DNA from: Enterobacter bugandensis
GTDB lineage: Bacteria > Pseudomonadota > Gammaproteobacteria > Enterobacterales > Enterobacteriaceae
NCBI GenBank assembly: GCA_964290475.1
Contig: CAXYPO010000002.1
Location: forward strand, 580,146-612,145
DNA: 32,000 nt
Direction: 5' to 3'
The translations under genes and the position numbers were made by a program. The notes under the pieces are model-generated. The model made no database searches. It saw only the letters and a list, made by a program, of their open reading frames with translations, and was not told the origin of the DNA. Of this stretch, positions 13,701-32,000 are shown one piece after another; position 1 is the stretch's first letter; every line of letters begins with the position of its first letter.

Positions 13701-13710
13701 GCCAAACACC

Positions 13711-16255: not shown

Positions 16256-16440
16256 GCACAACCTCAAAGTCAATCGTTGTGGCAACAGGTTACCGATGGC
16301 GGGCAAGGAGTATCAGAGACAGAAATGGGGAATTTAGGTATAACAGTTGTTTGAAAGTTTGGTGGTTTAGAGTGCTGTTATGGTTGAGATGAACGCCCCG
16401 CATGCAATAAAACACCCGGGGCACTCTTAACGCTATGTGC

Positions 16441-17466
16441 TTAGTCCCGCCAGCCCATCGCTGGCGCAACGTGTTTCAGAATGGACTCGATCACGTGCAC
16501 GTTATAGTCCACGCCCAGCTGATTCGGTACGGTCAGCAACAGGGTATCCGCTTCGGCAATGGCTTCGTCCTGCTTCAGCTGATCGATAAGCTTATCGGGC
16601 TCGGCGGCGTAGCTGCGTCCGAAGATGGCGCGGGTCTTCTCATCCAGATAGCCGACGCTGTCGCTCTCGTTACGGCTGGAGCCGAAGTACATCCGGTCCT
16701 GCTCGTTCATCAGGGCAAAGATGCTGCGGCTTACCGAGACGCGCGGCGTGCGGGTGTGTCCGGCCACGGCCCAGGCGTCGCGGTAGGCGCGGATCTGTTT
16801 CGCCTGCTGAATGTGGAAGGGCTCGCCGGTTTCATCATCCTTCAGGGTTGAGCTTTGCAGGTTCATCCCTAGCTTTGCCGCCCATACCGCGGTGGCGTTG
16901 GAGCCCGCCCCCCACCAGATACGATCGCGAAGCCCTTCGGAATGCGGCTCCAGGCGCAGCATACCCGGCGGGTTAGGGAACATCGGCTGCGGGTTGGGTT
17001 TGGCGAAACCTTCCCCGCGCAGTACGTCGAGCAGGACTTCGGTGTGGCGTCGCGCCATATCCGACTCGTTTTCGCCTTCCGCCGGGACGTAGCCAAAATA
17101 GCGCCAGCCGTCGATTACCTGCTCCGGGGAGCCGCGGCTGATACCGAGCTGCAAACGGCCGCCGGAGATCAAATCCGCCGAGCCGGCGTCTTCGGCCATA
17201 TAGAGCGGGTTCTCGTAGCGCATATCGATAACCCCGGTGCCAATCTCAATCCGGCGAGTTTTTGCGCCAACGGCGGCCAGCAGCGGGAAGGGGGAGGCGA
17301 GCTGGCGGGCAAAGTGGTGGACCCTAAAATAAGCGCCGTCCGCGCCAAGCTCTTCGGCGGCAACGGCCAGATCGATGGATTGCAGCAGGGCATCGGCGGC
17401 GCTGCGGGTGCCGGACTGCGGCGACGGCGTCCAGTGACCAAAGGACAAAAATCCAATCTTTTTCAT
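16441..17466 (-). CDS. LLM-class (luciferase-like) flavin-dependent oxidoreductase
   Basis: 341 aa; LAVAAEELGADGAYFRVHHFARQLASPFPLLAAVGAKTRRIEIGTGVIDMRYENPLYMAEDAG..DLISGGRLQLGISRGSPE. Confidence 0.88.
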   Translation of the reverse strand: MKKIGFLSFGHWTPSPQSGTRSAADALLQSIDLAVAAEELGADGAYFRVHHFARQLASPFPLLAAVGAKTRRIEIGTGVIDMRYENPLYMAEDAGSADLISGGRLQLGISRGSPEQVIDGWRYFGYVPAEGENESDMARRHTEVLLDVLRGEGFAKPNPQPMFPNPPGMLRLEPHSEGLRDRIWWGAGSNATAVWAAKLGMNLQSSTLKDDETGEPFHIQQAKQIRAYRDAWAVAGHTRTPRVSVSRSIFALMNEQDRMYFGSSRNESDSVGYLDEKTRAIFGRSYAAEPDKLIDQLKQDEAIAEADTLLLTVPNQLGVDYNVHVIESILKHVAPAMGWRD

Positions 17467-17586
17467 AACGGGTTATCCTGTTTGAAGAGGGTAAGCAGCC
17501 TGAGCTGTCTGGCATTACCTCTACTTTACGCATCGGGCGGTGAGAATAAATGCCCTTTATTTCACTAAATAATTCAAAAAAATTGA

Positions 17587-17628
17587 AGTAATGGACTACG
17601 CTTTATATAGCGTAGAAAAAATTACTTA
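17587..17628. promoter_or_regulatory. Nested inverted repeat upstream of the LLM oxidoreductase gene
   Basis: AAGTAAT-gga-CTACGCT-ttatat-AGCGTAG-aaaaa-ATTACTT; both 7-nt arms are perfect. Confidence 0.5.
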
Positions 17629-17849
17629 AAGAAATAGCTTGCAAGCTTCCAGCAGAGATGCGTTAATGGCCCTTCGGTTTGAAATCCAAAAAAATATCGC
17701 AGCAGTATTTAAAGCATCTCTCATCACGTTGTGCCTCTCCGCAGCCTCTCCTGGGTTTTTTCTTTTACGCTCTGATTACGTTTTGTCTCAGACCACTATT
17801 GCCTTAAAGGCCCAATTGTTAATGGCGTTTTTACGCCCTGGAGATTTAC

Positions 17850-18035
17850 ATGACTAACATTCATTTCCGCTGCCCGTGCTGCCACGGTTCGCAATACCGC
17901 ACTTCTATGTTCGACGTGTCAGAGCGCAACCCGCTCGGTGCCAAATGCATCTTTTGCAAATCACCGATGATGACCTTCGATCATATTGCCGCTTCGCAAC
18001 ACGCCCAGCGCGTACCTTTCGAAGCCCGCAAATAA
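17850..18035 (+). CDS. YnfU-like small zinc-ribbon protein
   Basis: 61 aa with CPCC...CIFCK: MTNIHFRCPCCHGSQYRTSMFDVSERNPLGAKCIFCKSPMMTFDHIAASQ. Resembles the YnfU family from memory. Confidence 0.7.
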   Translation: MTNIHFRCPCCHGSQYRTSMFDVSERNPLGAKCIFCKSPMMTFDHIAASQHAQRVPFEARK

Positions 18036-18143
18036 TAACGGGGCGCGCTGTCACGCCCCTGTTCCGCTCCCCGTTCCTATAACAGTTTTATAATTCTTCC
18101 CTTTTTCTCCTGCTGATATACTCTGTGCTATCGCAAGGAGAAA

Positions 18144-19562
18144 GTGATGAAAAAATACCAGCGCCTGGCGCAGCAAATCATTTCGCAGATTGAACTTGGC
18201 GTCTGGCAACCCGGCGACAAGCTTCCTTCGCTGCGCGAGCAGGTGGTGAGCAGCGGCATGAGTTTTATGACCGTCGGCCACGCCTACCAGATGCTGGAAA
18301 GCCAGGGGCGCATAGTTGCCCGACCTCAGTCTGGCTATTACGTCGCCGCCCGTCCCACTGGCCAGCAGCCCGCACCGCCTGCTCAGGTAATGCGCGATGA
18401 GGCGGTGGACATCAACACCTACATTTTCGACGTGCTACAGGCCAGCCGCGACGCCTCCGTGGTGCCCTTTGCCTCAGCCTTTCCCGACCCGCGCCTGTTC
18501 CCGCTTCAGCAACTCAACCGCTCGCTGGCTAACGTCAGTAAAACCGCCACCGCCATGAGCGTGATTGAAAACCTGCCACCGGGTAACAGCGATCTGCGCC
18601 ACGCCATCGCCCGCCGCTATGCCCAGCAAGGGATGACCATCTCCCCGGACGAAATCGTGATCACCGCCGGGGCGCTGGAGGCGCTCAACCTGAGTCTGCA
18701 GGCGGTCACCGAGCCGGGCGACTGGGTGATTGTCGAAAATCCCTGTTTTTATGGCGCGCTGCAGGCCCTGGAGCGCCTGAAGCTGAAAGCCCTGTCGGTG
18801 GCCACCGACGTACGCGACGGCATCGATCTGCAGGCGCTGGAGCAGGCGCTGGAAGAGTACCCGGTAAAAGCCTGCTGGCTGATGACCAACGGCCAGAACC
18901 CGCTGGGCTTTACCCTCAACCCGGCCAAAAAAGCGCAGCTGGTGGCGCTGCTGGCCCGTTACAACGTCACGCTTATCGAGGATGACGTCTATAGCGAGCT
19001 CTATTACGGCCGGGAAAAACCGCTCCCGGCGAAGGCCTGGGATCGCGGCGACATGACCCTGCACTGCTCCTCCTTTTCAAAATGCCTGGTCGCCGGATTT
19101 CGTATTGGCTGGGTGGCCGCGGGGAAACATGCCCGGCGCATCCAGCAGCTACAGCTGATGAGCACTCTTTCAACCAGCTCCCCCATGCAGCTGGCGCTGG
19201 TGGACTACCTGGCGACCAAACGCTACGACGCCCACCTGCGGCGCCTGCGCCGCACCCTGGCCGAGCGCAAACAGCAGGCCTGGCAGTCGCTGCTGCGCCA
19301 TCTCCCTGCGGAGGTCAAAATCCACCACAGCGACAGCGGCTATTTTCTGTGGCTTGAACTGCCCGCCGGGCTGAATGCGGGTCGGCTCAGCGAGCAGGCG
19401 CTGCGCCACCACATCAGCATTGCCCCCGGCAAGATGTTCTCTACCTCCGACGCCTGGACCCCCTTTTTCCGCTTTAATACCGCCTGGGCCTGGGGCGAGC
19501 GGGAAGAGCAGGCGGTAATGACGCTTGGCACGCTCATTCGTGAAATGATGACCCGGCCGTAG
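18144..19562 (+). CDS. ydcR: MocR/GntR-family PLP-dependent transcriptional regulator YdcR
   Basis: 472 aa; N-terminal GntR wHTH (QIELGVWQPGDKLPSLREQVVSSGMSFMTVGHAYQMLESQGRIVARPQSGYYV) and an aminotransferase domain (SSFSKCLVAGFRIGWV). Directly upstream of ydcS. Confidence 0.93.
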   Translation: MMKKYQRLAQQIISQIELGVWQPGDKLPSLREQVVSSGMSFMTVGHAYQMLESQGRIVARPQSGYYVAARPTGQQPAPPAQVMRDEAVDINTYIFDVLQASRDASVVPFASAFPDPRLFPLQQLNRSLANVSKTATAMSVIENLPPGNSDLRHAIARRYAQQGMTISPDEIVITAGALEALNLSLQAVTEPGDWVIVENPCFYGALQALERLKLKALSVATDVRDGIDLQALEQALEEYPVKACWLMTNGQNPLGFTLNPAKKAQLVALLARYNVTLIEDDVYSELYYGREKPLPAKAWDRGDMTLHCSSFSKCLVAGFRIGWVAAGKHARRIQQLQLMSTLSTSSPMQLALVDYLATKRYDAHLRRLRRTLAERKQQAWQSLLRHLPAEVKIHHSDSGYFLWLELPAGLNAGRLSEQALRHHISIAPGKMFSTSDAWTPFFRFNTAWAWGEREEQAVMTLGTLIREMMTRP

Positions 19563-19839
19563 CCCGCTCTTTTCCTGCGTTTTACTCCTGCTGACAATAA
19601 CGATCCCTTATCGCTTTCCCGGCCTTTGGGAAGCGGCGTCATAGGAAATCTGCATAGCGCCGTTGCGTGCTAACCCCTTGTCTATAATCCAGTTAACGGG
19701 GAATGCGTCCTCTGTCACAACCTGATGAAATTTATACGGCGTGCCGGGTGCGCCGCAGGGGCGCGGTCTACGTTTAGTACAGGAGATATTTTTAACGGCA
19801 TGGCCGCCGCCGAATCTCATTGCGACAGGAGTAAAACGT

Positions 19840-20985
19840 ATGAGCAAGTATTTTGCCCGTAGCAGCCTGTGTGCGCTCGGCATGACGATATTGACGGCCC
19901 AGGCAGCAGAGCCGCCCACCGCCATCGGCGAGGGAGAAGGACAGCTGGATATTATTGCCTGGCCTGGCTATATCGAGCGCGGCCAGACCGATAAAGCCTA
20001 TGACTGGGTCACCGCCTTCGAGCAAGAGAGCGGCTGTAAAGTTAACGTCAAAACTGCCGCCACCTCCGACGAAATGGTCAGCCTGATGGCAAAAGGGGGG
20101 TATGACCTGGTCACCGCCTCCGGCGACGCCTCCCTGCGGTTGATCATGGGCAAACGCGTCCAGGCCATTAACCCGGATCTAATCCCAAACTGGAAAACCA
20201 TCGACCCGCGCATCGTCAAAGGGGCGTGGTTTAATGTCGGCGGCAAGGTCTACGGCACCCCCTACCAGTGGGGGCCCAACCTGCTGATGTATAACACCAA
20301 AACCTTCCCGACGCCGCCGGACAGCTGGAGCGTGATCTTTAAAGAGCAGAACCTGCCGGACGGGAAATCGAATAAAGGCCGGGTGCAGGCCTACGACGGG
20401 CCAATCTACATCGCCGATGCGGCGCTGTTTGTCAAAGCCACCCAGCCGGAGCTGGGCATTACCGACCCCTATCAGCTCACCGAAGCGCAGTACGGCGCGG
20501 TGCTGAAGGTGCTGCGCGATCAGCATGCCCTGGTTCACCGCTACTGGCATGACACCACCGTGCAGATGAGCGATTTCAAAAACGAAGGGGTGGTGGCCTC
20601 CAGCGCCTGGCCGTACCAGGCCAACGCCCTGAAGGGCGAGAACCAGCCCATCGCCACCGTCTTCCCGAAAGAGGGGGTGACCGGCTGGGCGGACACTACC
20701 ATGCTCCATACGGATGCCAAACACCCCATGTGCGCCTACAAGTGGATGAACTGGTCGCTGACGCCCAAAGTGCAGGGCGATCTGGCAGCCTGGTTCGGCT
20801 CGCTGCCGGTGGTGGCAGAAGGCTGTAAAGCCAGTACGCTACTGGGGGAGAAAGGCTGCGAAACCAACGGCTACAACGCCTTCGACAAAATCCTGTTCTG
20901 GAAAACCCCCATCGCTGAAGGGGGCAAGTTCGTTCCCTACAGCCGCTGGACGCAGGATTACATCGCCATTATGGGTGGTCGTTAA
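19840..20985 (+). CDS. ydcS: YdcS, spermidine/putrescine-type ABC substrate-binding protein
   Basis: From ATG 19840: MSKYFARSSLCALGMTILTAQAAEPP..GEGQLDIIAWPGYIERG...; first gene of ydcSTUV-patD. Confidence 0.93.
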   Translation: MSKYFARSSLCALGMTILTAQAAEPPTAIGEGEGQLDIIAWPGYIERGQTDKAYDWVTAFEQESGCKVNVKTAATSDEMVSLMAKGGYDLVTASGDASLRLIMGKRVQAINPDLIPNWKTIDPRIVKGAWFNVGGKVYGTPYQWGPNLLMYNTKTFPTPPDSWSVIFKEQNLPDGKSNKGRVQAYDGPIYIADAALFVKATQPELGITDPYQLTEAQYGAVLKVLRDQHALVHRYWHDTTVQMSDFKNEGVVASSAWPYQANALKGENQPIATVFPKEGVTGWADTTMLHTDAKHPMCAYKWMNWSLTPKVQGDLAAWFGSLPVVAEGCKASTLLGEKGCETNGYNAFDKILFWKTPIAEGGKFVPYSRWTQDYIAIMGGR

Positions 20986-21002
20986 TCGCCCGGGAGCATC
21001 CC

Positions 21003-22016
21003 ATGACGTACGCAGTAGAGTTTAACGACGTCTCACGCCGGTACGGGGAGGTGCGGGCGGTGGATGGCGTCACTATCGCCATCCGCGACGGGGAGTTTTT
21101 CTCGATGCTGGGGCCGTCTGGCTCCGGCAAAACCACCTGCCTGCGCCTGATCGCCGGTTTTGAACAGCTGAGCGGCGGCTCTATCACCATTTTTGGCAAA
21201 GCGGCCAGCGAGCTTCCACCCTGGGAGCGCGATGTGAATACCGTCTTTCAGGACTACGCGCTCTTTCCCCATATGTCGATCCTCGATAACGTCGCCTACG
21301 GCCTGATGGTGAAGGGGATCGATAAAAAAAACCGCCATGCCCGCGCCCGTGATGCGCTGGACAAGGTGGGCTTAAGCTTCGCCGAAGGGCGCAAACCCTC
21401 GCAGCTCTCGGGCGGCCAGCGCCAGCGGGTGGCTATCGCCCGGGCGCTAGTGAATCAGCCCAGGGTGCTATTGCTGGACGAACCGCTGGGGGCGCTGGAT
21501 CTCAAGCTGCGCGAACAGATGCAGTTCGAGCTAAAAAAGCTCCAGCAGGAGCTGGGGATCACCTTTATCTTTGTCACCCACGATCAGGGGGAGGCGCTCT
21601 CCATGTCCGATCGGGTGGCGGTATTTAACAACGGTCGCATTGAGCAGGTAGACACCCCGCGCGAGCTCTATATGCGCCCGCGCACCCCGTTCGTAGCGAG
21701 TTTTGTCGGTACCTCTAACGTCTTTAGCGATGCGCTGGCCCAGCGCCTCTGCGGCATGGCGGGCAGTTACTCGCTGCGCCCGGAGCATATCCGCCTCAAC
21801 CAGGGCGGCGAGATCGAGGTTCAGGGCGTGGTGCAGACCGTGCAGTATCAGGGGGCCGCCACGCGCTTCGAACTGCGGCTGGCGGACGGCGCAAAGCTGC
21901 TGGTAAGCCAGGCGAACCTCAGCGATGCCGCGCTGCCGCCGGGCGTGGCGCCGGGCCAGCTGGTCACCGCCTCCTGGGCGCGGGGCGCGATGGTGCCGCT
22001 CCAGGAGGAGAGGTGA
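21003..22016 (+). CDS. ydcT: YdcT ABC transporter ATPase
   Basis: Walker A GPSGSGKTT, signature LSGGQRQRVAIARAL, Walker B RVLLLDEPLGALD; operon context. Confidence 0.94.
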   Translation: MTYAVEFNDVSRRYGEVRAVDGVTIAIRDGEFFSMLGPSGSGKTTCLRLIAGFEQLSGGSITIFGKAASELPPWERDVNTVFQDYALFPHMSILDNVAYGLMVKGIDKKNRHARARDALDKVGLSFAEGRKPSQLSGGQRQRVAIARALVNQPRVLLLDEPLGALDLKLREQMQFELKKLQQELGITFIFVTHDQGEALSMSDRVAVFNNGRIEQVDTPRELYMRPRTPFVASFVGTSNVFSDALAQRLCGMAGSYSLRPEHIRLNQGGEIEVQGVVQTVQYQGAATRFELRLADGAKLLVSQANLSDAALPPGVAPGQLVTASWARGAMVPLQEER

Positions 22017-22017
22017 G

Positions 22018-22962
22018 ATGGAGATGAGCCTGACAAGATCCACATCATCACGCGGTGTTAGCAGCCGTCTCTCCGCGCTCTTCTGGCGCAGGCCGACGCT
22101 GGGGCTGTTGCTACTGCTTATCGGCCCGCTGATGTGGTTTGGCATCGTCTATCTGGGATCGCTGCTTACCCTGTTGTGGCAGGGATTCTACACCTTTGAC
22201 GATTTCACCATGGCGGTGACGCCGGACCTGACCCTCGCCAACCTGCAGGCGCTTTTTCACCCGGCCAACTACGACATCATCCTGCGCACCCTGGTGATGG
22301 CGATTGCAGTGACGCTGGCCAGCGCGGTGCTGGCCTTCCCCATGGCCTGGTACATGGCCCGCTATACCAGCGGCAAATGGAAAGCCTTCTTTTATATCGC
22401 CGTGATGCTGCCCATGTGGGCCAGCTATATCGTTAAGGCCTACGCCTGGACGCTGCTGCTGGCAAAGGACGGCGTCGCGCAATGGTTCCTTAACCATATG
22501 GGGCTGGAGCCGCTGCTTACCTCGCTGCTGACCCTGCCTGCCGTGGGCGGCAATACGCTCTCCACCTCCGGGCTGGGGCGCTTTCTGGTGTTCGTCTATA
22601 TCTGGCTGCCCTTTATGATCCTGCCGGTGCAGGCGGCGCTGGAGCGCCTGCCGCCGTCGCTACTGCAGGCTTCGGCGGATCTCGGTGCCCGTCCGCGCCA
22701 GACCTTCCGCTACGTGGTGCTGCCGCTGGCGATCCCCGGTATCGCCGCCGGGTCAATCTTCACCTTTTCTTTAACCCTCGGCGATTTTATCGTGCCGCAG
22801 CTGGTGGGGCCGCCGGGCTACTTTATCGGCCAGATGGTCTACTCCCAGCAGGGGGCGATTGGCAATATGCCGATGGCGGCGGCCTTTACCCTGGTGCCCA
22901 TCGTACTGATCTCGCTCTGGCTGGCGTTAGTTAAACGCCTGGGAGCCTTCGATGCACTCTGA
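22018..22962 (+). CDS. ydcU: YdcU ABC transporter permease
   Basis: Hydrophobic permease with an EAA-type loop ([27 protein letters not shown]). Start ATG 22018 ([10 protein letters not shown]); the ORF as listed starts upstream inside ydcT. Confidence 0.92.
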
Positions 22963-23758
22963 ACGCGCGCCGCTGTTCCTGAAAATTGCCACCTGGGGCG
23001 GGGTGATCTTTCTCCACTTCCCGCTGCTGATTATCGCCATCTATGCCTTTAATACCGAGGAGGCGGCCTTTAGCTTCCCGCCTCAGGGGCTAACCCTGAA
23101 GTGGTTCAGCGTGGCGGCAGCGCGGGGGGATATTCTTGATGCCGTGACGTTGTCACTGAAGATTGCCGCGCTCTCTACGGCCATCGCGCTGGTGCTGGGC
23201 ACTTTGGCCGCAGCGGCGCTCTGGCGCAGCGAATTCTTTGGCAAAAACGCCATATCGCTGCTGCTGTTATTGCCTATCGCCCTGCCGGGGATCATTACCG
23301 GTCTGGCTCTGCTTACCGCCTTTAAAACCGTCAATCTTGAGCCGGGCTTCTTCACCATTGTGGTCGGGCACGCCACCTTCTGCGTGGTGGTGGTCTTTAA
23401 CAACGTCATTGCCCGCTTCCGGCGCACCTCCTGGAGTCAGGTGGAGGCGTCGATGGATTTAGGCGCCAACGGCTGGCAAACCTTCCGCTACGTGGTGCTG
23501 CCCAATCTGGGGTCGGCGCTGCTGGCGGGCGGTATGCTCGCTTTTGCGCTGTCGTTTGATGAGATTATCGTCACCACTTTTACCGCAGGGCACGAACGCA
23601 CCTTACCCCTGTGGCTGCTCAACCAGCTTGGCAGGCCGCGCGACGTGCCGGTTACCAACGTGGTGGCGCTGCTGGTGATGCTAGTGACAACTCTTCCTAT
23701 TCTGGGAGCCTGGTGGCTCACCCGCGACGGCGATACTGTTGCCGGCGACGGGAAATAA
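22952..23758 (+). CDS. ydcV: YdcV ABC transporter permease
   Basis: EAA loop [28 protein letters not shown]; operon position. Confidence 0.93.
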
Positions 23759-23782
23759 CCTCGATTTCAACAGGACAATGCT

Positions 23783-25207
23783 ATGCAAACTCAACTGCTG
23801 ATAAATGGTGAACTGGTCTCGGGCGAAGGCGAGAAACAGGCGGTCTACAATCCTGCCACCGGTGAGGTGCTGGTGGAGATCGCCGAAGCAAGCGCCGCCC
23901 AGGTGGATGCCGCTGTTCAGGCCGCGGACCGGGCGTTTCGCGAATGGGGCCAGACCACGCCGAAAGTCCGTGCCGAGGCGGTGTTAAAACTGGCGGACAT
24001 CATTGAACATAACGCCGACGTTTTTGCCCGGCTGGAGTCGCAGAACTGCGGTAAACCGCTACACAGCGTGGCGGGGGATGAGATCCCGGCGGTGGCCGAC
24101 GTGTTTCGCTTCTTTGCCGGGGCCGCCCGCTGCCTGAACGGGCTGGCGGCGGGGGAGTATCTTGAAGGCCACACCTCGATGATCCGCCGTGACCCGATCG
24201 GGGTAGTGGCCTCCATCGCCCCCTGGAACTATCCCCTGATGATGGCCGCCTGGAAGCTCGGCCCGGCGCTTGCCGCGGGCAATTGCGTGGTGCTTAAACC
24301 TTCAGAAATTACGCCGCTGACAGCCCTGAAGCTGGCGGAGCTGGCAAAAGATATCTTCCCGGCCGGGGTGCTGAACGTCCTTTTCGGGCGCGGCAAAACC
24401 GTGGGCGACCCGCTTACCGGGCATGACAAGGTGCGGATGGTCTCCCTGACCGGATCTATTGCCACCGGCGAGCACATCATCGGCCATACCGCCTCCTCTA
24501 TTAAGCGCACCCATATGGAGCTCGGCGGCAAAGCGCCGGTGATTGTCTTTGATGATGCCGACCTGGACGCCGTCGTGGAGGGGGTACGCACCTTCGGTTT
24601 TTATAACGCCGGCCAGGACTGCACCGCCGCCTGCCGCATCTATGCCCAGCAGGGGATCTACGCCGCGCTGGTCGAAAAACTGGGCGCGGCCGTTGCCAGT
24701 ATCAAGCTCGGCCCACCGGAAGATGAAACTACCGAGCTGGGGCCGCTAAGCTCGCAGGCGCATCTGGAGCGGGTGGCGAAAGCCGTGGATGAAGCCAAGG
24801 CGCAGGCGCATATTCAGGTGGTGGCCGGGGGCAGCAGGCACGAGGGTAAGGGCTTCTACTTCCAGCCCACGCTGCTGGCCGGGGCGAAACAGGAAGACGC
24901 CATCGTCCAGCGGGAGGTCTTTGGCCCGGTGGTGAGCGTTACCAGCTTTAACGACGAGGCGCAGGTAGTGGAGTGGGCCAACGACTCGCCCTACGGGCTG
25001 GCGTCTTCCGTCTGGACGCAGGATGTCGGGCGGGCGCACCGCGTCAGCGCCCGGCTGCAGTATGGCTGCACCTGGGTCAATACCCACTTTATGCTGGTCA
25101 GCGAAATGCCCCACGGCGGGATGAAAATGTCCGGCTACGGCAAGGATATGTCGGTGTACGGTCTAGAGGATTATACGGTCGTCAGACATGTGATGATAAA
25201 ACATTAA
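23783..25207 (+). CDS. patD: Gamma-aminobutyraldehyde dehydrogenase PatD (YdcW)
   Basis: 474 aa ALDH; [23 protein letters not shown] and [18 protein letters not shown] motifs; last gene after ydcV. Confidence 0.94.
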
Positions 25208-25302
25208 TCCCGCAGCCGCCGGTAACCCCCCGGCGGCTAAATTCATAAAGAATATTTAATATATTCTCAAAATATATCTTTTATTATTTACAAAACGACC
25301 CC

Positions 25303-25329
25303 TAAATTAAACTCCCGCCAGGTCGATAT
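25303..25329 (+). promoter_or_regulatory. Candidate FliA (sigma-28) promoter of the flagellin-like gene
   Basis: TAAATTAA-N11-GTCGATAT compared with TAAAGTTT-N11-GCCGATAA: -35 core TAAA intact, -10 6/8, exact 11-nt spacing. It sits about 30 nt upstream of the ATG. Confidence 0.5.
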
Positions 25330-25361
25330 AACGGTAACCTCTCACTTTGCGGCGCACTATT

Positions 25362-26807
25362 ATGCTTGCCATTAATAATAACGAGATTGCCGGGCTTTCG
25401 CTTAAATACCGGAAAAGCAACGAATCCATGCTTTCACAGGCCGTGGAACGCCTCTCGTCCGGCCTGCGGATCAACGGCGCCAAAGACGATGCCGCCGGGC
25501 AGGCGATCGTCAACCGTATGCAGTCAAATCTCAACGCAGACAGCGTGATTTCTCGCGGCATGGACGATGCTATAAGCCTGGCGCAGACCGCAGAAAGCGC
25601 GCTCGGTGAAATTGGCGACATGCTTATTCGTGCAAAAAGTCTGGCGGTTCAGGCGGCAACGGGAACGCTCTCAGAAAGCGACCGTATCAGTATTAATAAT
25701 GAGTATCAGCAAATACTGGCCGGTATTACGCAAATAACTGAGGGAACGGAAATATTTGGGCAATATCCCCTCGCGACGGATAACCCGGTATTGCCGCCGC
25801 AGCTGCTTGGCGATGTGGGGCCTTTAAATACTAAATTCCCGATAATGGGTAATACCTACTCCTTTACTTCGGGGATTGTTCCGCTGGCCTATATTCCCGC
25901 CGGTTCGACAAATCTGACTATCAGGATCAACTCCCTGGGCCTGGATGACGATCTTCAGCTCTTTACCCGGGATGGTAAACACCTGGTGGGAACACCGCTG
26001 GAAGGCGCAGACGCGGATTTCACCTGGGTGAGCCACGGGATCACCGACGGCACGCTCGCCACCGGTGCCCTTATGAACTCTGCCAACGGCTTTGCCAGCG
26101 GCGCCACCTACGATGACTTCCTGCTGCTGGAAGGGGGGCCGGTCTGGGATAACACCGGCCCGACGCTGGCCTATAACGGCATGAATATCACCTATAGCGG
26201 CGATGGCGACCGCTACGAAGACAGCACTAACGGCGGCTATAACGACGGCACCAACGGCCCGATTATGAGCGAGCGCATTACGCTGGACCAGGTGACCGAA
26301 GATCTGCTGGTGATGGTAGTGGGCAATGGCTCGTTCACCAGCGCAGTGACCTGGGGAAATCTGCCTGCGCCGACGGCGACGCCCGCCGTACCGCCTAAGC
26401 AGAGCCATCCGGTGGAGCTGGTGACCAGCGCCAACTTTGGCGAAGAGATGCAGACCATGACCATCGCGCCGACGCCTGCGGATCTCAAAACCCTTAAGCT
26501 GGAAAACACCAGTATGTCGACCCAAAGCGGGGCCAGTCAGTGTATGGGGGCATTAGATGCGGCGCTGGAAAAGGTGAGTGGCTATCGCAGCCAGTACGGG
26601 GCGACGATTAATAGCGTCGAGTCGCACAAGGCGGTGCTGTCACAGCAGAACATTGCCCTGCAGGCCAGCCGCAGCCGCATTCAGGACGCGGACTATGCCG
26701 CTGAAGCCAGCCGCCTGGCCCGGGCGCAAATTCTGGAGCAGGGGCAGTCTGCGGCGCTGAAAATTGCCAATCAGGCGCCGCAGAGGGTGCTGGATCTGCT
26801 GAAATAA
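25362..26807 (+). CDS. Flagellin-like protein with an atypical central domain
   Basis: 481 aa from ATG 25362. N-terminal D0/D1 (SQAVERLSSGLRINGAKDDAAGQAIVNRMQSNLNADSVISRGMDDAISLAQTAESALGEIGDMLIRAKSLAVQAATGTLSESDR) and C-terminal D1/D0 (ALDAALEKVSGYRSQYGATINSVES...QDADYAAEASRLARAQILEQGQSAALKIANQAPQRVLDLLK). Confidence 0.88.
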   Translation: MLAINNNEIAGLSLKYRKSNESMLSQAVERLSSGLRINGAKDDAAGQAIVNRMQSNLNADSVISRGMDDAISLAQTAESALGEIGDMLIRAKSLAVQAATGTLSESDRISINNEYQQILAGITQITEGTEIFGQYPLATDNPVLPPQLLGDVGPLNTKFPIMGNTYSFTSGIVPLAYIPAGSTNLTIRINSLGLDDDLQLFTRDGKHLVGTPLEGADADFTWVSHGITDGTLATGALMNSANGFASGATYDDFLLLEGGPVWDNTGPTLAYNGMNITYSGDGDRYEDSTNGGYNDGTNGPIMSERITLDQVTEDLLVMVVGNGSFTSAVTWGNLPAPTATPAVPPKQSHPVELVTSANFGEEMQTMTIAPTPADLKTLKLENTSMSTQSGASQCMGALDAALEKVSGYRSQYGATINSVESHKAVLSQQNIALQASRSRIQDADYAAEASRLARAQILEQGQSAALKIANQAPQRVLDLLK

Positions 26808-26809
26808 AG

Positions 26810-26992
26810 TTACCAGCCGCAGACGCTATGCTCGTTTTCAGTGTCATAAGCGCGCACGGTGTTCACCAGATCTTTCACCACGTCGGCGGCGACGTCGGGC
26901 AGCAGCAGCTCCATTGGGGTTTCGGTTTCATAATCCACCGATACCCCGTTGCTGTTATTGGTCACGGTGACCGTATAAGTTGCCTTGCCCAT
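26810..26992 (-). CDS. yoaG: YoaG (DUF1869) small protein
   Basis: 60 aa from ATG 26992: MGKATYTVTVTNNSNGVSVDYETETPMELLLPDVAADVVKDLVNTVRAYDTENEHSVCGW, near-identical to recalled E. coli YoaG. Confidence 0.93.
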   Translation of the reverse strand: MGKATYTVTVTNNSNGVSVDYETETPMELLLPDVAADVVKDLVNTVRAYDTENEHSVCGW

Positions 26993-26996
26993 CGTC

Positions 26997-27350
26997 TTAC
27001 TCCTTATGGGTATTAACGACTTTCCCCAGGCCTGCGCCTTCAAGCGTTGCGTCGGGAGCGGCAAAAAAGTCGATATTAAAATAGGTATCTTCCGTCAGCA
27101 GTTCGATGCGATGCCATTTTTGCGGCGGGGAGATACCAAAGCTGCCGGCTTCGATTACCAGCTCCAGATCCGGCTCTGTGGCATCACCATCGGCAAAGCC
27201 AAAATAGCGCACCGCGCCCTGCATCACCGACAGGCGGCCATAGACGTTGGCTTTGGTGTTGTGATGGGTGAAGAGCGCTTTTGGTGCGGTTTCACGGTTC
27301 CAGAAGGGGGTAGAGCGGGTATGAACATAATTTTCAGGAATACGTAGCAT
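26997..27350 (-). CDS. YeaR-family (DUF1971) cupin-like protein, second tandem copy
   Basis: 117 aa MLRIPENYVHTRSTPFWNRETAP...QKWHRIELLTEDTYFNIDFF; paralogue of the adjacent gene. Confidence 0.88.
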   Translation of the reverse strand: MLRIPENYVHTRSTPFWNRETAPKALFTHHNTKANVYGRLSVMQGAVRYFGFADGDATEPDLELVIEAGSFGISPPQKWHRIELLTEDTYFNIDFFAAPDATLEGAGLGKVVNTHKE

Positions 27351-27376
27351 GGTCGGTTCCTTATAGCGCAGTGCGC

Positions 27377-27703
27377 TCAGTATGATTTCAGGATCTCGGG
27401 CTCAACGAAAAAATCGATATTAAACAGCGTGTCATCACTCATCACCTCGATGTGATGCCAGCGTTCCGGCGGAAATACGCCAAAATGCCCCGCTTCGATG
27501 ATGAGAACGCCGTCGGGCTCGGGGCTGGTCTCATCAGCATAGCCGAGCCAGATAACTGTGCCCTGCATAACGCTAAGGCGAGGATAGACGCCGGGTTGGG
27601 TGCCTTTATCAAGGTGGCGCTGAAACAGGCCAGCAGGGGCGGTCATTCTGTTCCAGATCGGGGTGGAGCGGGTATGAATACAACTCTGCGGAATACGAAG
27701 CAT
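27377..27703 (-). CDS. yeaR: YeaR (DUF1971) cupin-like protein, first copy
   Basis: From ATG 27703: MLRIPQSCIHTRSTPIWNRMTAPAGLFQRHLDKGTQPGVYPRLSVMQGTV...PPERWHHIEVMSDDTLFNIDFF; closest of the two to recalled E. coli YeaR. Confidence 0.9.
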   Translation of the reverse strand: MLRIPQSCIHTRSTPIWNRMTAPAGLFQRHLDKGTQPGVYPRLSVMQGTVIWLGYADETSPEPDGVLIIEAGHFGVFPPERWHHIEVMSDDTLFNIDFFVEPEILKSY

Positions 27704-27775
27704 TTTTCCTCCCTTTTTAGCCTGCAACCATTAAAGCACCTCAGGGACAGGATTATTGTGCATAAAGTGCATTTC

Positions 27776-27786
27776 AATTGCAACTT
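27776..27786 (-). promoter_or_regulatory. Candidate NsrR half-site upstream of yeaR
   Basis: Minus strand AAGTTGCAATT matches the recalled 11-bp NsrR half-site AANATGCATTT in part. It lies inside the imperfect inverted repeat AAAGTGCATTTCAATTGCAACTTT (27764..27787). Confidence 0.35.
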
Positions 27787-27847
27787 TAAACGCACTGGCA
27801 GGAGTGGTCTATACTTAGCTGTTCCGAAGGCCAACAAGGAGATATTT

Positions 27848-27925
27848 ATGAACTATGTAGAGAAAGATGATCCACGTGAAGCGCCGGAATCAGGTGACAA
27901 AAAGCCGCAACCGGCGAAGAAGTAA
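27848..27925 (+). CDS. Short ORF, 25-aa charged peptide of unknown function
   Basis: MNYVEKDDPREAPESGDKKPQPAKK*; preceded by AAGGAG, with a CTATACTT -10-like element upstream and a strong terminator directly downstream. Confidence 0.65.
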   Translation: MNYVEKDDPREAPESGDKKPQPAKK

Positions 27926-27931
27926 CACCAC

Positions 27932-27956
27932 AAAGGTCGCTCAGGCGACCTTTTTT
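27932..27956 (+). terminator. Rho-independent terminator after the 25-aa ORF
   Basis: AAAGGTCGC-tcag-GCGACCTTTTTT, perfect stem with T-run. Confidence 0.93.
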
Positions 27957-28084
27957 ATGTACAAAATGCTACCCAGTTGTTATTAACCTTATGAAATAAG
28001 TGGATATCTTGTAACAAAACACTTGATCTGTATCACTATATGACGCATATTGCGCCCGGTTATTTTATAAGCGGAGTGAGCGCA

Positions 28085-28258
28085 ATGACGTTGTATCAGA
28101 AAATGTTGGTGTTTTACGCAATCATGGCGACGCTCTGCGCCCTTATTACCTGGTTCCTCTCTAAAGATCGTAAACGCATTCGCTTTCTGAGCGCCTTTCT
28201 GGTGGGCTCAACCTGGCCGATGAGTTTCCCGGTGGCGCTGCTAATTTCGTTATTTTGA
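28085..28258 (+). CDS. ortT: OrtT/GhoT-family small membrane toxin (YdcX)
   Basis: 57 aa MTLYQKMLVFYAIMATLCALITWFLSKDRKRIRFLSAFLVGSTWPMSFPVALLISLF. OrtT/GhoT C-terminal signature; on the patD side of the locus as in E. coli; no GhoS antitoxin ORF. Confidence 0.88.
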   Translation: MTLYQKMLVFYAIMATLCALITWFLSKDRKRIRFLSAFLVGSTWPMSFPVALLISLF

Positions 28259-28307
28259 CTCCCGCTGCCGATGGGCGTCTCAACCCTCCGGACGGTAAAC
28301 CCAGGCA

Positions 28308-28733
28308 TTATCCCGGTACATGGCAGGTGGTGTGGTAATAGGTACCGGCTGGCACTTTGATGGGGAAAATGTGGCAGGTTTTGACGTAGTCAGCAGGCTC
28401 CCCCTTGTACACATAAGCCGTCAGATGCTCCTTTTCCGGGAATGGCGTAACGCCGCCCCGGTGCCAAAACGACGCTTTAAGATAGAGATGGGTGTCGTAG
28501 ATGCTGTGGTAGCCATGGCGGATCGCATCTGACGAAGAGGCGGCGAGCGCGGCGTATACCGGGGTTTGCGAAGTATCGCTGGATGTTAATACTAATTGTT
28601 GCTGGGTAATGGCTACCCATGTTGTACAGCCCGGATTGGTACAGACAAACGTTGCTGCAAATCCCGGGGGCGTACTGGCAATAAAGCCCACTCCTGAAAG
28701 CAAAAATGGTAAAGAAAATTTAAATCTGCTCAT
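28308..28733 (-). CDS. Hypothetical exported protein
   Basis: 141 aa, clear signal peptide (MSRFKFSLPFLLSGVGFIASTPPGFAA). Mature part contains four cysteines; no family recognised. Confidence 0.7.
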   Translation of the reverse strand: MSRFKFSLPFLLSGVGFIASTPPGFAATFVCTNPGCTTWVAITQQQLVLTSSDTSQTPVYAALAASSSDAIRHGYHSIYDTHLYLKASFWHRGGVTPFPEKEHLTAYVYKGEPADYVKTCHIFPIKVPAGTYYHTTCHVPG

Positions 28734-29295
28734 TACATCTTGTCCTTAAAGCTTTTTATATCTTCATATTTAATATGCAAGCGTATTATTTCCTGAATAA
28801 CGGATGCGCGAAAAGTACGCCAGCAATGGCGTGGATTATAAAAACGACGTTATAAAATTAATAAGATGCGAAGGGGAGCAATCCTTAATTATCCAGCCAC
28901 AGGCTTTGCTGTCGTGGGATTAGGACAGGGATTTATCAATAACTTATGCATTAACAAACAGATAGCCATCAAATTCATAATTTAAATCTTTAGTTTTATC
29001 GCTGCTCCTGATTTTCTGCCCGCTAAGATGAGGCTTACTACCGCCGCTTTCTGTGATCTCTGTCGCTTTCAGGGTACTCTTTTTATTAATAGTGATCTCA
29101 GTGGCGGCATAAATATAAAATTTAATTACGATGCTGTTGAAGTATTCTTATTAATTATTGTAATAATCGCGCTGTTATAAAAATGATTAACGGTAAGAAA
29201 ATAGAGATTTCCCTCTAAGAAAAGTACCCGGATTTATCCTTTCTGAAGGCCGCTTCCAGTTTTGTCTTTCGGCAATAGCATTTCTTTTGCGATAA

Positions 29296-29311
29296 CTGTA
29301 TAAATACACAG
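29296..29311. promoter_or_regulatory. Candidate LexA (SOS) box
   Basis: CTGTATAAATACACAG compared with consensus CTGTATATATATACAG (14/16, CTG-N10-CAG), 20 nt upstream of ATG 29332. Confidence 0.65.
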
Positions 29312-29331
29312 CCATCAGAAAAGGAGTGCTT

Positions 29332-30084
29332 ATGAACAGCTTTTATTCGCAGCAGGCCTGCTGCACGGTGCGCTGGCTGGATCTGCCCGGCCATGGCGAA
29401 CCGCTGGTGTTTATCCACGGTCTCGGCTGCGCCTCATCTTATGAATATCCCCGTATTGTCTGCGACCCGGCATTCGGTGCCCGCCGGGCGATCCTGATCG
29501 ACCTTCCCGGCAGCGGCTACAGTGATAAACCCACCGCTTATGGCTATCACACCAGCGCCCAGGCACGGGTGGTCATCGAGCTTCTGCAACACCTCAACGT
29601 TGATACCTTCTGGCTATACGGGCACAGCATGGGCGGCAGTATCGCCATCGAAGCCGCAGCGCTTGGCGGCAAACGAGTCCTCGGGCTGATGGTCTCGGAA
29701 CCCAATTTCAGCGCCGGGGGCGGGCAGTTCAGCCGGGGAATTGCGGCGCAAACGGAAGCAGAGTTTATCCGCACGGGCTATCCGGCAATGCTGGAAGCCG
29801 AAACCTCCGGTTGGAAAGGGAGCCTTACAAGCAATGCCCCCTGGGCAGTATGGCGGGGCGCCGCCAGCCTGGTGAAGGGCGTTTCGCCCGCCTGGGGCGA
29901 CATTTTCATTAACCTGGCTGTCCCGACCTGGCTGATTTTTGGCGAACTTTCGCTGCCGGATGCGGACGAGGCGGCCATGCGCCAGCAGGGGGTAGCGGTA
30001 AAGATCCTACCCGACGCCGGACATTCCATGTCGCTGGAGAACCCCTCCGGGCTGGCGAAAATCCTCGCGGAATGCATGGGCTAA
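29332..30084 (+). CDS. Alpha/beta hydrolase
   Basis: GEPLVFIHGLGCASSYEY, nucleophile elbow YGHSMGGSIAIE, late histidine DAGHSMSLENPSG. Start ATG 29332 after AAAAGGAG. Confidence 0.88.
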   Translation: MNSFYSQQACCTVRWLDLPGHGEPLVFIHGLGCASSYEYPRIVCDPAFGARRAILIDLPGSGYSDKPTAYGYHTSAQARVVIELLQHLNVDTFWLYGHSMGGSIAIEAAALGGKRVLGLMVSEPNFSAGGGQFSRGIAAQTEAEFIRTGYPAMLEAETSGWKGSLTSNAPWAVWRGAASLVKGVSPAWGDIFINLAVPTWLIFGELSLPDADEAAMRQQGVAVKILPDAGHSMSLENPSGLAKILAECMG

Positions 30085-30108
30085 AAAAGGCCCGCCTGAG
30101 CGCGGGCC
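30083..30108 (-). terminator. Rho-independent terminator of srfC
   Basis: Minus strand GGCCCGC-gctcag-GCGGGCCTTTTTT. The T-run overlaps the hydrolase stop codon on the other strand. Confidence 0.9.
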
Positions 30109-30115
30109 GCAAGGG

Positions 30116-32000
30116 TTACGGCAGCAGGCTCTTTAACTGCTGGCGGGCAGCGGGGGAGATATCGTGCGGATGCTGATACCCGATATTCTCACAGGCCTGG
30201 GTATAGAGCGCGACCAGCCAGTCGTATACGTAGGCGGTGGCCGCGTGTACCGGCTGCTCCCCGAGCCGGGTCAGGCGCGGGGCGCTGCTGACCACCGTTG
30301 GGGTAACAAAGATCGGCTGCCCTTTGCGGATGCGGCTTGCCGGGCGCGATGAGGCAGGCGTCTGGGCGTAGCCGACCCAGCCGACAAAGTTGCCGAGCGC
30401 AGCGTGCAGCTGGGCGGCGCAGCTCTTGTCGGTATCAACAATCTTTTTCAGCGCTGCCGGCAGGTTCAGGCGGTAGCTGCTGGCGATCAGCACGTCGGCA
30501 ATATGTTGCAACACCGCGCTTTCCAGCCCCAGTCGGCTGGCGGTGCCCTCGTCGCGGCTCCACTGGCGCAGGTGGTTAACCCAGATGCTGTGGGCCTGTC
30601 GGGCTTTATCTTTCGGCTGCCAGCTCTCGTGGCTCTCCTGCGCGCCGTCGGCAAAGAGATCGATGGCGTCGGTAAAGAGGCCGTTGACCTGCTCTTCGCG
30701 CGGCTGCTGTACGTTAAGCAGGGTTTCGAAGGCGCTTAACGGCGGCAATAGCCCCTCCAGCAGTTCACCGTGGCGGGCGGCGCTCCCCTGCAGGGTGCGT
30801 ACCGTTGCCTCGGCGGTGGTACGCTGCGCATCGGGATCCTGGTTCAGCGGGGCAAGATAGCCCGCCATCAGCCTGTGCAGTTCCCGCCCAAGCCTGGCCT
30901 GCAGCGCCTGCAAGCGACGCTGGCGCAGCCCGGCGAGGGTCGCCTGGGAGAGCCACTCGATAACGCGCTGCATGCTGCTGCTGTCCAGCGCCTGCAGGGT
31001 GCCCCAGTGCTGGCCCGGTTTGCCCAGCAGCTGCTGCACCGCCTCATCAAGGTTAGCGCGGGTGGTAAAACGGGCGTCGTGCGGGGTGATAGCCCACACC
31101 ACGCCCGGCAGGGCGGCATCTTCCCCCGGCTGGGTGTCGTGCACCCAGTTCAGCAGCGCTCTGGCGGTGCTGGCGGTCTGGTCGTGCTGCCCGGTGGCGT
31201 TACAGATAACCAGCACGTCCGGCTGAAGCTGCTGGCGATAGTGTTCCAGCAGCCAGCGGCGCTTCGCCTGGGCCAGCGGCGCTTCGGGCTGAACCGAAGG
31301 GGCAGGAATATCAATGATCGCCACCTGGTCCAGCGCGGCGCTCTCGACCGGCAGCTCCAGCTCGCGGGTGAGCAGGGCGAGCAGATCCAGCGGAATGCTG
31401 ATGGCGTTAAGCAGCTCGCCGTTCAGCACCGGATGCAGCACCGCCTGCTGGACGTCCGGCTGGGTGATATCGCCGCAGGTCAGAAAACCTTCCGTGGGCA
31501 GGCCAAAGTTGTCTACCAGCAGGCTCACCGGCGCGGCCAGTTCGCTGGCGTGGCTGGTCTGGTGCAGAATATGCGCCAGCGCCAGCCACTCCTGGGTCAG
31601 TTCCTGCTGTTCGCCCCAGAGCAGCGACCAGACGCTGGCGCGGGTGCTGAGATCCAGAGACGGCAGCAGCAGCGCGAACTGATGCCACAGAGCATCGTCC
31701 ATCTGCCGGGCAGCGGCAGGAACGTGCTCCTGCCAGTAACGGGCGATGGCCCCGACATCTGCGGCGGTGATCCCCGGCACCGACTGGGGCTGGCGCAGCG
31801 CGCGCCACTTCTCCAGCCGCGCTTCGATCACCGCTTTGTCCACTGCCGGCACCGTGGCGCGGGTAATAAACAGCTGGACCAGCTCGGCCTCGGTAACCAG
31901 GCGCAGGCGCAGGGGAAAGGCGTCGTCGGCGGGCTCGTCGGCTGCCGGGGTAAAGCGGACTGCCATATTGGTCAGGGCGTGTCCGGGGTTAATATGGGCG
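30116..32000 (-). CDS. srfC: Putative virulence factor SrfC, 3' part (open at window edge)
   Basis: The 616-aa ORF reads upstream in frame without a stop to the window edge (AHINPGHALTN before MAVRFTP), so the gene is truncated by the window. Sequence style matches SrfC. Confidence 0.75.
   Translation of the reverse strand, partial: AHINPGHALTNMAVRFTPAADEPADDAFPLRLRLVTEAELVQLFITRATVPAVDKAVIEARLEKWRALRQPQSVPGITAADVGAIARYWQEHVPAAARQMDDALWHQFALLLPSLDLSTRASVWSLLWGEQQELTQEWLALAHILHQTSHASELAAPVSLLVDNFGLPTEGFLTCGDITQPDVQQAVLHPVLNGELLNAISIPLDLLALLTRELELPVESAALDQVAIIDIPAPSVQPEAPLAQAKRRWLLEHYRQQLQPDVLVICNATGQHDQTASTARALLNWVHDTQPGEDAALPGVVWAITPHDARFTTRANLDEAVQQLLGKPGQHWGTLQALDSSSMQRVIEWLSQATLAGLRQRRLQALQARLGRELHRLMAGYLAPLNQDPDAQRTTAEATVRTLQGSAARHGELLEGLLPPLSAFETLLNVQQPREEQVNGLFTDAIDLFADGAQESHESWQPKDKARQAHSIWVNHLRQWSRDEGTASRLGLESAVLQHIADVLIASSYRLNLPAALKKIVDTDKSCAAQLHAALGNFVGWVGYAQTPASSRPASRIRKGQPIFVTPTVVSSAPRLTRLGEQPVHAATAYVYDWLVALYTQACENIGYQHPHDISPAARQQLKSLLP

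Follow-up and report, generated by a model that had tools for sequence, protein, structure and literature searches.

An orphan flagellin gene of Enterobacter bugandensis with a conserved and portable central module

The closest described relative of the gene reported here is flaA of Cronobacter sakazakii ATCC 29544, which was knocked out by Hoeflinger & Miller in 2017 (PMC5328975). The flaA deletion strain was still motile, flagellated and autoaggregative, and strains deleted for fliC, or for flaA and fliC together, were aflagellate and non-motile (PMC5328975). FlaA was regarded in that study as a redundant filament protein; its center, promoter and distribution were not part of the analysis. 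Campylobacter FlaC is a flagellin-like, secreted protein with no part in motility (PMC4863622, PMC5466977). Minor flagellins, such as FlaB of H. pylori or Campylobacter and FlaA of Shewanella, are low-proportion subunits whose deletion leaves filaments and basic motility in place (PMC8306008). Flagellinolysin, FliA(H) of Clostridium haemolyticum, contains an HExxH metallopeptidase and ranks second in abundance among flagellar proteins (Eckhard et al. 2017, PMC5595980). The gene analyzed here, an orphan flagellin gene assigned to a FlaA family together with the Cronobacter gene, lies in a 32,000-nucleotide (nt) stretch of Enterobacter bugandensis DNA (GCA_964290475.1, contig CAXYPO010000002.1, positions 580,146 to 612,145, forward strand), which is called the window below. 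Compared with these systems, it stands out for an unnamed central module that is as conserved as the flagellin ends and that recurs in hook and junction proteins, adhesin-like giants and a phage tail fiber.

The open reading frame (ORF) was intact, running from an ATG at 25362 to a TAA at 26805-26807; translation is unlikely to begin at an in-frame TTG farther upstream (25347), since the orthologs align from the ATG. The product (481 amino acids (aa), 50.8 kDa, isoelectric point (pI) 4.5) differs from the nearest database protein (P0001) at two residues (I172V, F253S), so the two are not identical. Pfam assigned Flagellin_N (PF00669) to aa 4-138 (E 1.7e-26, 93.3 bits against a cutoff of 26.6) and Flagellin_C (PF00700) to aa 396-480 (E 1.4e-16, 61 bits against a cutoff of 23). 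An AlphaFold2 model of the full protein (predicted local distance difference test score (pLDDT) 85) featured a center that was confidently beta-rich, and its predicted D0/D1 superposed on filament cores in the PDB with template-modeling (TM) scores, normalized to the target, of 0.75-0.81 (e.g. 8cvi_I and 9ls0_A). The model gave 81 PDB matches at E<=1e-3; normalized to the query, TM did not exceed 0.49, and the PDB flagellins aligned to the two ends of the protein only. A first-pass annotation of the window had described an orphan flagellin whose two ends are clearly D0/D1 and whose center is atypical and beta-rich. The Pfam assignments and the model agree with it, and the peptides that it quoted all occur where it placed them. 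It had also singled out a cysteine. The protein has one Cys, at residue 394, a clade-specific substitution seen in 6 of 84 sequences and without significance for the family as a whole.

Scores against the curated models were used for classification. The NCBIfam models of the FliC/FljB subfamily (NF005294 and NF005953) returned 192.5 bits against a cutoff of 387 and 182 bits against 619, respectively, and the NCBIfam flagellin models matched the two ends of the protein only; for comparison, the ordinary Castellaniella FliC encoded beside an ortholog scores 438.8 bits. By these scores, the protein belongs to the flagellin superfamily and lies outside the curated FliC/FljB subfamily. In common with FliC and FljB, it has both terminal Pfam domains, the D0/D1 fold, a flg22/TLR5-type region that is intact (ERLSSGLRINGAKDDAAGQAI) and a predicted promoter of the class-3 sigma-28 type. 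It differs in that the window gene lies outside a fliCDST locus, in that the center is conserved rather than hypervariable, and in that a FlaA-type flagellin was insufficient for filament formation in the one ortholog tested (Cronobacter). Identity with FlgL (HAP3) was considered and rejected, as TIGR02550 gave 101.3 bits against a cutoff of 127.2 and the flagellin models scored higher. A flagellinolysin-type enzyme was likewise rejected: the protein has no HExxH, as the first-pass annotation had argued, and no peptidase family match. The likeness to flagellinolysin is that the center of a flagellin is a conserved domain across many species, which in flagellinolysin is displayed on the filament surface; flagellinolysin is abundant in flagella, whereas the Cronobacter ortholog shows no abundant incorporation.

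Pfam and NCBIfam gave nothing for the center (aa ~140-395), and it did not align with the variable domains of ordinary fliC genes. Its conservation was compared with that of the ends in ca. 80 reference genomes, where mean pairwise identity was 59% for the N-terminal D0/D1, 60% for the center, 63% for the core module and 55% for the C-terminal part. Nei-Gojobori ratios of nonsynonymous to synonymous rates (dN/dS) were 0.07-0.13 in every region and in three independent clades, with dS near or above 0.6-1. By these estimates, the ends and the center are both under strong purifying selection, and the conserved center reverses the ordinary flagellin pattern, in which the center is hypervariable. 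The first-pass annotation was right to call the center atypical and missed this core-level conservation across many genera. The first ~25 residues of the protein are poorly conserved across the FlaA family. Within the center, the motifs DDDxQxFxRDGxHLxGTP, NGF, YSGDGDRYE and ED were invariant in the ortholog alignments. Across 97 sequences of all architectures, P179, G181, D196, D197, Q199, F201, G205, H207, G210, T211, W222, Y250, G280, D281, E304 and E313 were each at least 85% conserved. The core module is acidic (21 D/E against 5 K/R, pI ~4.05).

The central segment was used in a HMMER scan of 1.84 billion cluster representatives. Matches were obtained in 146 clusters, 112 of which were flagellins or flagellin fragments, and 13 full-size proteins other than flagellins carried the module (E 1e-11 to 1e-34). 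In six FlgE hook proteins and one FlgK, it replaces or adds to the outer domains; in three giant immunoglobulin (Ig)-repeat or RTX surface proteins, it lies near the N-terminus; and in two CarboxypepD_reg-repeat proteins, it occupies the extreme C-terminus. The last is a Gp10_C baseplate-domain protein encoded within a phage-tail-like gene row beside a collagen-like fiber gene; residues 200-365 of this protein match PHROG tail-fiber families, and the module is distal to them. Judged from these matches, the module is a portable, unnamed and uncharacterized domain family common to flagellins, hooks, adhesins and a phage fiber. The FlgK in question (896 aa, from Modicisalibacter sp. 'Wilcox') is itself an orphan, with no flgL or flagellar gene nearby; its neighbors encode SapC, a trypsin-Calx-beta protein and a giant (>2,181-aa) DUF4347-cadherin-RTX protein.

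When modeled alone, the center was predicted with a pLDDT of 90 and a predicted TM score (pTM) of 0.82. It had no significant fold match among PDB or viral structures; the sub-threshold Foldseek matches were to jelly-roll and P-domain folds, including the furin and CspC P-domains and galectin, and to the collagen-binding domain of ColH (3JQW). Attempts at identification by profile (Pfam at E<=10 with 12 members, the PDB and PHROGs) yielded nothing beyond a sub-threshold hint of PPC. Homology searches with the center, as a single sequence or as a 31-sequence profile, returned fragments of the same family only. The PPC hint was confined to aa 178-209 and was present in 3 of the 12 members scanned. 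There, the strand pair IPAGSTNLTIRINSLGLDDDLQLFTRDGKHLV aligns to positions 9-39 of the PPC profile, and the loops of the module are acidic, as in calcium-binding sandwiches. The module differs from PPC in size, at ~180 aa with a ~90-residue insertion against ~70 aa.

Full-length orthologs (480-485 aa, 50-79% identity, 100% coverage) were found in Leclercia, Silvania, Pseudescherichia, Pantoea, Erwinia, Kalamiella, Mixta, Kosakonia, Phytobacter, Enterobacter spp., Atlantibacter, Cronobacter, Franconibacter, Pectobacterium, Brenneria, Samsonia and one Serratia. Outside Enterobacterales, they occurred in Halomonadaceae, Castellaniella, Pusillimonas and one metagenome-assembled genome of Thiotrichales. 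The carrier taxa are mostly plant-associated or environmental. An intact full-length ORF was present in ca. 74 of 79 reference genomes. At least two of the relatives that carry the gene, Cronobacter and Castellaniella, also have a separate fliC. The central domain was not found in 5,426 complete E. coli genomes, and neither it nor the flagellin was found in 50,697 phage records.

The gene occupies at least eight different genomic contexts and stands alone in each. It lies beside patD in Leclercia, Silvania and the clade of the window; in a thrS...ydiY-pfkB context in Pseudescherichia, Kosakonia, Enterobacter, Phytobacter and one Salmonella; in a LysR-budAB...CitMHS context on plasmids of 170-580 kb in Pantoea and Duffyella; at further, separate sites in Erwinia, Mixta, Cronobacter and Franconibacter; on integrase-bearing islands, with a LuxR/RcsA-like gene after the flagellin, in Pectobacterium, Brenneria, Samsonia and Serratia; and, in Castellaniella, adjacent to genes for glycosyltransferases and for an ordinary FliC of 290 aa. 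Plasmid records matched in 61 cases, of which 58 were from Pantoea or Duffyella and the other three were weak Pseudoalteromonas matches. No co-travelling gene (chaperone, glycosyltransferase or cap) emerged when all neighbors of more than 70 loci were clustered.

Some individual carriers deserve mention. In Pectobacterium betavasculorum NCPPB 2795, two copies of the family lie ~54 kb apart on one contig and differ in N-terminus (MASINTN... and MTPITSLH...) and in context. In Castellaniella and in Vreelandella sedimenti, the gene adjoins genes for sugar modification and for glycosyltransferases, reminiscent of flagellin glycosylation islands; the protein of Vreelandella has 418 aa and no detectable Flagellin_C domain. 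The records named 'Vagococcus sp. WN89Y' and 'Salmonella enterica strain s1' hold the gene in a ydiY context of the Kosakonia/Pseudescherichia type, and one family member (P0313) is filed under Bacillus amyloliquefaciens. By these contexts and names, the Vagococcus, Salmonella and Bacillus carriers look mislabeled or contaminated.

Upstream sequences were compared with the sigma-28 (FliA) consensus (TAAAGTTT-N11-GCCGATAA). In 53 of 78 ortholog loci, at least 13 of the 16 consensus positions were matched at -58 to -67 from the start codon, a level that ca. 1% of random 200-nt windows from the same loci reached. The sequence TAAAT[AT]AA-N11-G[CT]CGATA was kept in 8 of 8 window-clade sequences at the position of the window's own element. 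The predicted FliA promoter in most lineages appears to tie the gene to the flagellar regulon. A Shine-Dalgarno core was lacking in 46 of 74 orthologs, the window included, against 30% of neighboring ORFs, which served as a rough control. Since the core is missing in most copies, a low-abundance product is plausible.

Other signals were noted around the start of the gene. A second conserved box, (A/G)AATATATC(G/T), lies at 25269-25279 of the window, ~85-90 nt upstream of the flagellin start and ~30 nt upstream of the sigma-28-like -35. It is common to all eight Leclercia, Silvania and window-clade sequences and could be a regulator site or a -10-like element for sigma-70. The hairpin just after patD (Table 1) has no T-run and was not called in the terminator scan; it may separate transcription of the ydcSTUV-patD operon from that of the flagellin gene. 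In Samsonia, Serratia and two Pectobacterium loci, a TTATCTTT-N11-G(T/C)CG(A/C)TAA element is found ~170 nt (160-180) upstream. At six loci of this Pectobacterium type, the flagellin is followed by a conserved gene for a ~181-aa LuxR/RcsA-like helix-turn-helix protein, and regulation in the clade may differ. An analogy of these islands to fljB-fljA was rejected, the downstream 181-aa protein being LuxR/RcsA-like and not FljA. In the window, no regulator gene adjoins the flagellin; hence, the locus is not of the phase-variable fljBA or flkAB type.

The identity of the gene studied in Cronobacter was established from its published knock-out primer. The primer equals, without mismatch, the 40 nt directly upstream of the Cronobacter ortholog (locus L004, 7961-8000), and for this reason flaA is taken to be the ortholog of the window gene. 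The two proteins share 51% full-length identity and the same central module, and their sizes are close (483 aa and a predicted 50.1 kDa in Cronobacter, against 50.8 kDa). The genes differ in setting, with flaA lying between a HAD hydrolase gene and an MFS gene, and in promoter strength, with a near-consensus sigma-28 promoter in Cronobacter and a weaker one in the window. Because flaA is dispensable and the fliC deletion is aflagellate, the FlaA family does not appear to supply a redundant propeller subunit under laboratory conditions. The published Cronobacter data exclude only a major structural role under those conditions and are compatible with either role offered in the first-pass annotation, a minor subunit of the filament or a non-filament protein that is exported.

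The other described systems resemble the FlaA family in part. As with the minor flagellins, there is a second flagellin whose deletion, in the Cronobacter ortholog, spares filaments and basic motility. Those proteins resemble the major flagellin and tune filament mechanics near the hook, whereas the FlaA family has a unique conserved module and was undetected in Cronobacter filaments. Campylobacter FlaC is likewise an additional flagellin homolog whose gene lies apart from those of the structural flagellins and which is dispensable for motility; it leaves the cell through the flagellar apparatus, as would be expected of the FlaA-family protein. FlaC is a small protein and is not known to have an outer domain; the main feature of the present protein, by contrast, is its large conserved outer module. 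The flagellin homologs of Sphingomonas sp. A1 (2ZBI, 3K8V and 3K8W; labeled 'bacterial cell-surface flagellin' by their depositors) align in D1 alone, and their outer domains are unrelated. These homologs bind alginate, which would make them an earlier example of a flagellin that serves as a receptor for a polysaccharide.

The preferred interpretation, to which about an even chance is assigned, is that the gene encodes a FliA-controlled accessory flagellin that displays the module as a low-stoichiometry, minor subunit of the filament. The gene would be a one-gene cassette with its own FliA (sigma-28) class-3 promoter, and its transcription would thus coincide with that of fliC and the late flagellar genes. 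Given the conserved D0/D1 and the apparent link of expression to the flagellar regulon, the product is expected to be a substrate of the flagellar type III export apparatus. A separate fliC would build the filament, and the FlaA-family protein would not be the propeller; its payload would be the conserved, acidic beta-sandwich of ~180 residues in the middle. Small amounts would co-polymerize into FliC filaments, so that the module was displayed on the flagellar surface, where it would bind an external ligand, probably a carbohydrate or other polymer and possibly with calcium. A role in ligand binding is suggested, by analogy, by the presence of the module in adhesin-like giants and its distal position on the tail fiber, by the faint likeness to PPC and collagen-binding domains, by the acidic Gly/Asp-rich loops and by the plant and environmental hosts. 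A wider generalization, in which the module is a general 'functionalization cassette' for extracellular polymers (an unnamed ligand-binding, possibly calcium-dependent and glycan-binding family), is offered tentatively and seems somewhat doubtful. On that view, FlaA-type proteins would be minority adhesin or sensor subunits for a conserved plant or environmental ligand, which would explain why their outer domain is conserved across genera and ordinary centers are hypervariable.

Several results weigh against this interpretation. Deletion of flaA in Cronobacter had no phenotype in the assays used, which covered swimming, flagellation and autoaggregation, and sheared Cronobacter filaments gave the 28.9-kDa FliC only, with no band at 50 kDa (PMC5328975); the gel was Coomassie-stained, with ~2 ug from a brain heart infusion (BHI) culture (PMC5328975). 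Given the missing 50-kDa band, incorporation into the filament, if real, must be of low stoichiometry or conditional. The element upstream of the window gene matches the sigma-28 consensus at 11 of 16 positions only, and the clade of Pectobacterium, Brenneria, Samsonia and Serratia has no sigma-28 element at -60. Disrupted copies were present in ca. 4 of the 79 reference genomes (L. adecarboxylata NCTC13032, Enterobacter sp. EA-1, Halomonas PR-M31 and Brenneria salicis). The best Foldseek match of the center was non-significant (E 0.016, TM 0.32), and Pfam PPC (PF04151) scored 11.6-15.8 bits where 25.9 are required. The first-pass annotation's proposal of a 'PPC-like' beta-sandwich whose loops are rich in Asp is thus retained as a sub-threshold resemblance. 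With the fold unmatched and PPC below threshold, the case for binding is one of analogy and context.

The same Cronobacter data bear on the strongest competing explanation, which was judged unlikely overall yet deserving of serious weight: that the protein is a secreted, non-filament effector similar to FlaC. On this account, D0/D1 would serve only FliS binding and flagellar type III export, and the protein would leave the cell as a monomer, its module working as a lectin, a binder or an enzyme, either free in solution or on the surface of a target. It would accommodate both the failure to detect the protein in sheared Cronobacter filaments and the aflagellate fliC deletion (PMC5328975), Campylobacter FlaC supplies the precedent (PMC4863622; PMC5466977), and the poor conservation of the first ~25 residues is compatible with it. 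It is difficult to reconcile with the finding that all of D1 and the C-terminal D0 are selected as strongly as the center, beyond what an export signal needs. In addition, the predicted D0/D1 superposes on polymerized flagellins, and the module, as its occurrence on FlgE and FlgK shows, can be displayed on axial structures that have assembled.

The function of the module itself could be other than binding. It could be structural, forming outer-domain lattices that stiffen the filament, hook or junction, in the manner described for the dimerization of outer domains, or enzymatic, as an unrecognized hydrolase or lyase in 'enzymatic flagella'; taken together, these options were considered improbable. 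The module is present on hook and junction proteins, and in viscous media, motility is known to be tuned by interactions between outer domains (PMC8931119). A lattice needs high stoichiometry, however, which is at odds with the Cronobacter gels, and it leaves the module on the RTX and Ig giants and on the phage tail fiber unexplained. As to catalysis, the invariant D196, D197, H207, E304 and E313 could form an active site, and flagellinolysin is a precedent for a conserved enzymatic domain in a flagellin (PMC5595980); the module nevertheless matched no catalytic family by sequence or fold and lacks HExxH.

It was thought still less probable, and quite unlikely in absolute terms, that the gene is an alternative major flagellin that builds whole filaments under other conditions, for example on plants or at low temperature, as do FljB in Salmonella or the flk, fll and flm loci in E. 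coli. The complete D0/D1, the gene's own promoter, the small LuxR/RcsA-like regulator next to the gene on the Pectobacterium-type islands, which recalls fljB-fljA, and the existence of flagellin loci other than fliC in E. coli are all in keeping with such a role. The window and most clades have no repressor beside the gene, however, and the Pectobacterium regulator is not FljA-like. The promoter is of the same class as that of fliC and therefore points to co-expression with fliC, not alternation. The fliC deletion in Cronobacter was aflagellate and non-motile, most copies have no Shine-Dalgarno core, and a center that served as a filament antigen would be expected to vary, yet it is conserved. 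A functionless relic of a duplicated or transferred flagellin, drifting towards loss, would fit the lack of a flaA phenotype, the four disrupted copies and the weak promoter and ribosome-binding site of the window, but it is rendered highly improbable by the ca. 74 of 79 intact reference genomes, a dN/dS of ~0.1 in all regions and three clades, and a promoter kept at a fixed distance.

Existing annotations all label the gene 'flagellin', and one deletion of it has been made, in Cronobacter. The conserved center, the FliA promoter, the cassette-like distribution and the recurrence of the module in FlgE, FlgK, adhesins and a phage fiber were absent from the literature searched. In the parts retrieved by key terms, two papers on Enterobacterales flagellar genomics (PMC7526173, PMC4875605) and one on flagellin diversity (PMC7018530) made no mention of the gene or module, nor did one section of a paper on outer-domain clustering (PMC11532411). 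The promoter, the wider occurrence of the module and the Cronobacter knock-out also go beyond the first-pass annotation. Flagellin outer domains are usually seen as hypervariable antigenic decoration; the FlaA family inverts the pattern, with an outer domain as conserved as the polymerization core across Enterobacterales, Halomonadaceae and Alcaligenaceae. A protein that is under selection, apparently wired into the flagellar regulon and dispensable for swimming suggests that the flagellar export and assembly machinery has a further task unrelated to motility, one that would concern plant-associated and opportunistic genera (Pantoea, Erwinia, Pectobacterium, Cronobacter, Kosakonia and Leclercia). 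If the module binds a ligand, it would provide a testable handle on flagella-mediated adhesion and on the retention of 'redundant' flagellins, and possibly a natural scaffold for filament display.

Table 1. Positions of the flagellin gene, its parts and nearby signals in the 32,000-nt window.
Feature	Position	Strand	Remarks
GC-rich hairpin GCCGCCGG-TAACCCC-CCGGCGGC	25215..25237	+	Just 3' of the patD stop
Sigma-28 (FliA)-type promoter-like element TAAATTAA-N11-GTCGATAT	25303..25329	+	59 nt upstream of the ATG
Orphan flagellin gene (FlaA family)	25362..26807	+	481 codons plus stop; ORF, Pfam ends, orthologs, dN/dS 0.07-0.13
N-terminal D0/D1 helices	25362..25757	+	aa 1-132; predicted helices 8-32, 44-99 and 105-128; PF00669; filament-core superposition
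Central region	25758..26495	+	aa 133-378; predicted beta-rich outer domain and Pro-rich return linker; no Pfam family
Portable core module	25854..26387	+	aa 165-342 (about 165-340); extent from FlgE, FlgK, RTX, Ig-giant and phage matches
C-terminal D1/D0 helix	26496..26804	+	aa 379-481; continuous predicted helix 388-480; PF00700

The window holds no other flagellar gene (fli or flg) in its 32 kb, and the flagellin gene adjoins patD, both as first annotated. The gene order, that of an enterobacterial chromosomal region apart from the flagellin, is ydcK-tehAB-ydcO...ydcR-ydcSTUV-patD, flagellin, a DUF1869 gene, two DUF1971 genes and ortT, beyond which lie an unassigned 141-aa ORF, an alpha/beta hydrolase gene and a srfC-like gene. 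The flagellin gene is thus flanked by patD (23783-25207) and the convergent DUF1869 gene (26810-26992); its GC content of 57.5% is slightly below the 61-62% of the flanks. The DUF1869 (ydcY-like) gene converges on the flagellin stop at a distance of 2 nt, which leaves no space for a terminator, and is followed by tandem DUF1971/TehB-like paralogs at 26997-27350 and 27377-27727 (region 26810-27727, minus strand). No Rfam RNA family was found anywhere in the window.

Farther downstream, the GC content falls to 0.44-0.50 between 27500 and 29500, against 0.58 for the whole window. This stretch holds a small toxin gene of the OrtT/GhoT type (28040-28258, plus strand) and the 141-aa ORF (28308-28733, minus strand), whose product has a signal-peptide-like N-terminus and several cysteines and matches no Pfam family. 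The srfC-like gene (30116-31966, minus strand), for a 'putative virulence factor' (PF10139), is followed by srfB and srfA in a matching metagenome contig (L001). The srfABC genes are reportedly part of the flagellar regulon in Salmonella; if so, two outliers of that regulon would lie less than 4 kb apart in the window. Positions 16444-32000 of the window are 98.2% identical to contig L001, and the upstream part (1-16443) is divergent. The window has cytochrome bd oxidase genes there (13839-16306, minus strand), against a type VI secretion system Hcp gene and a Tlde1-domain gene in L001, which looks like a strain-level island difference.

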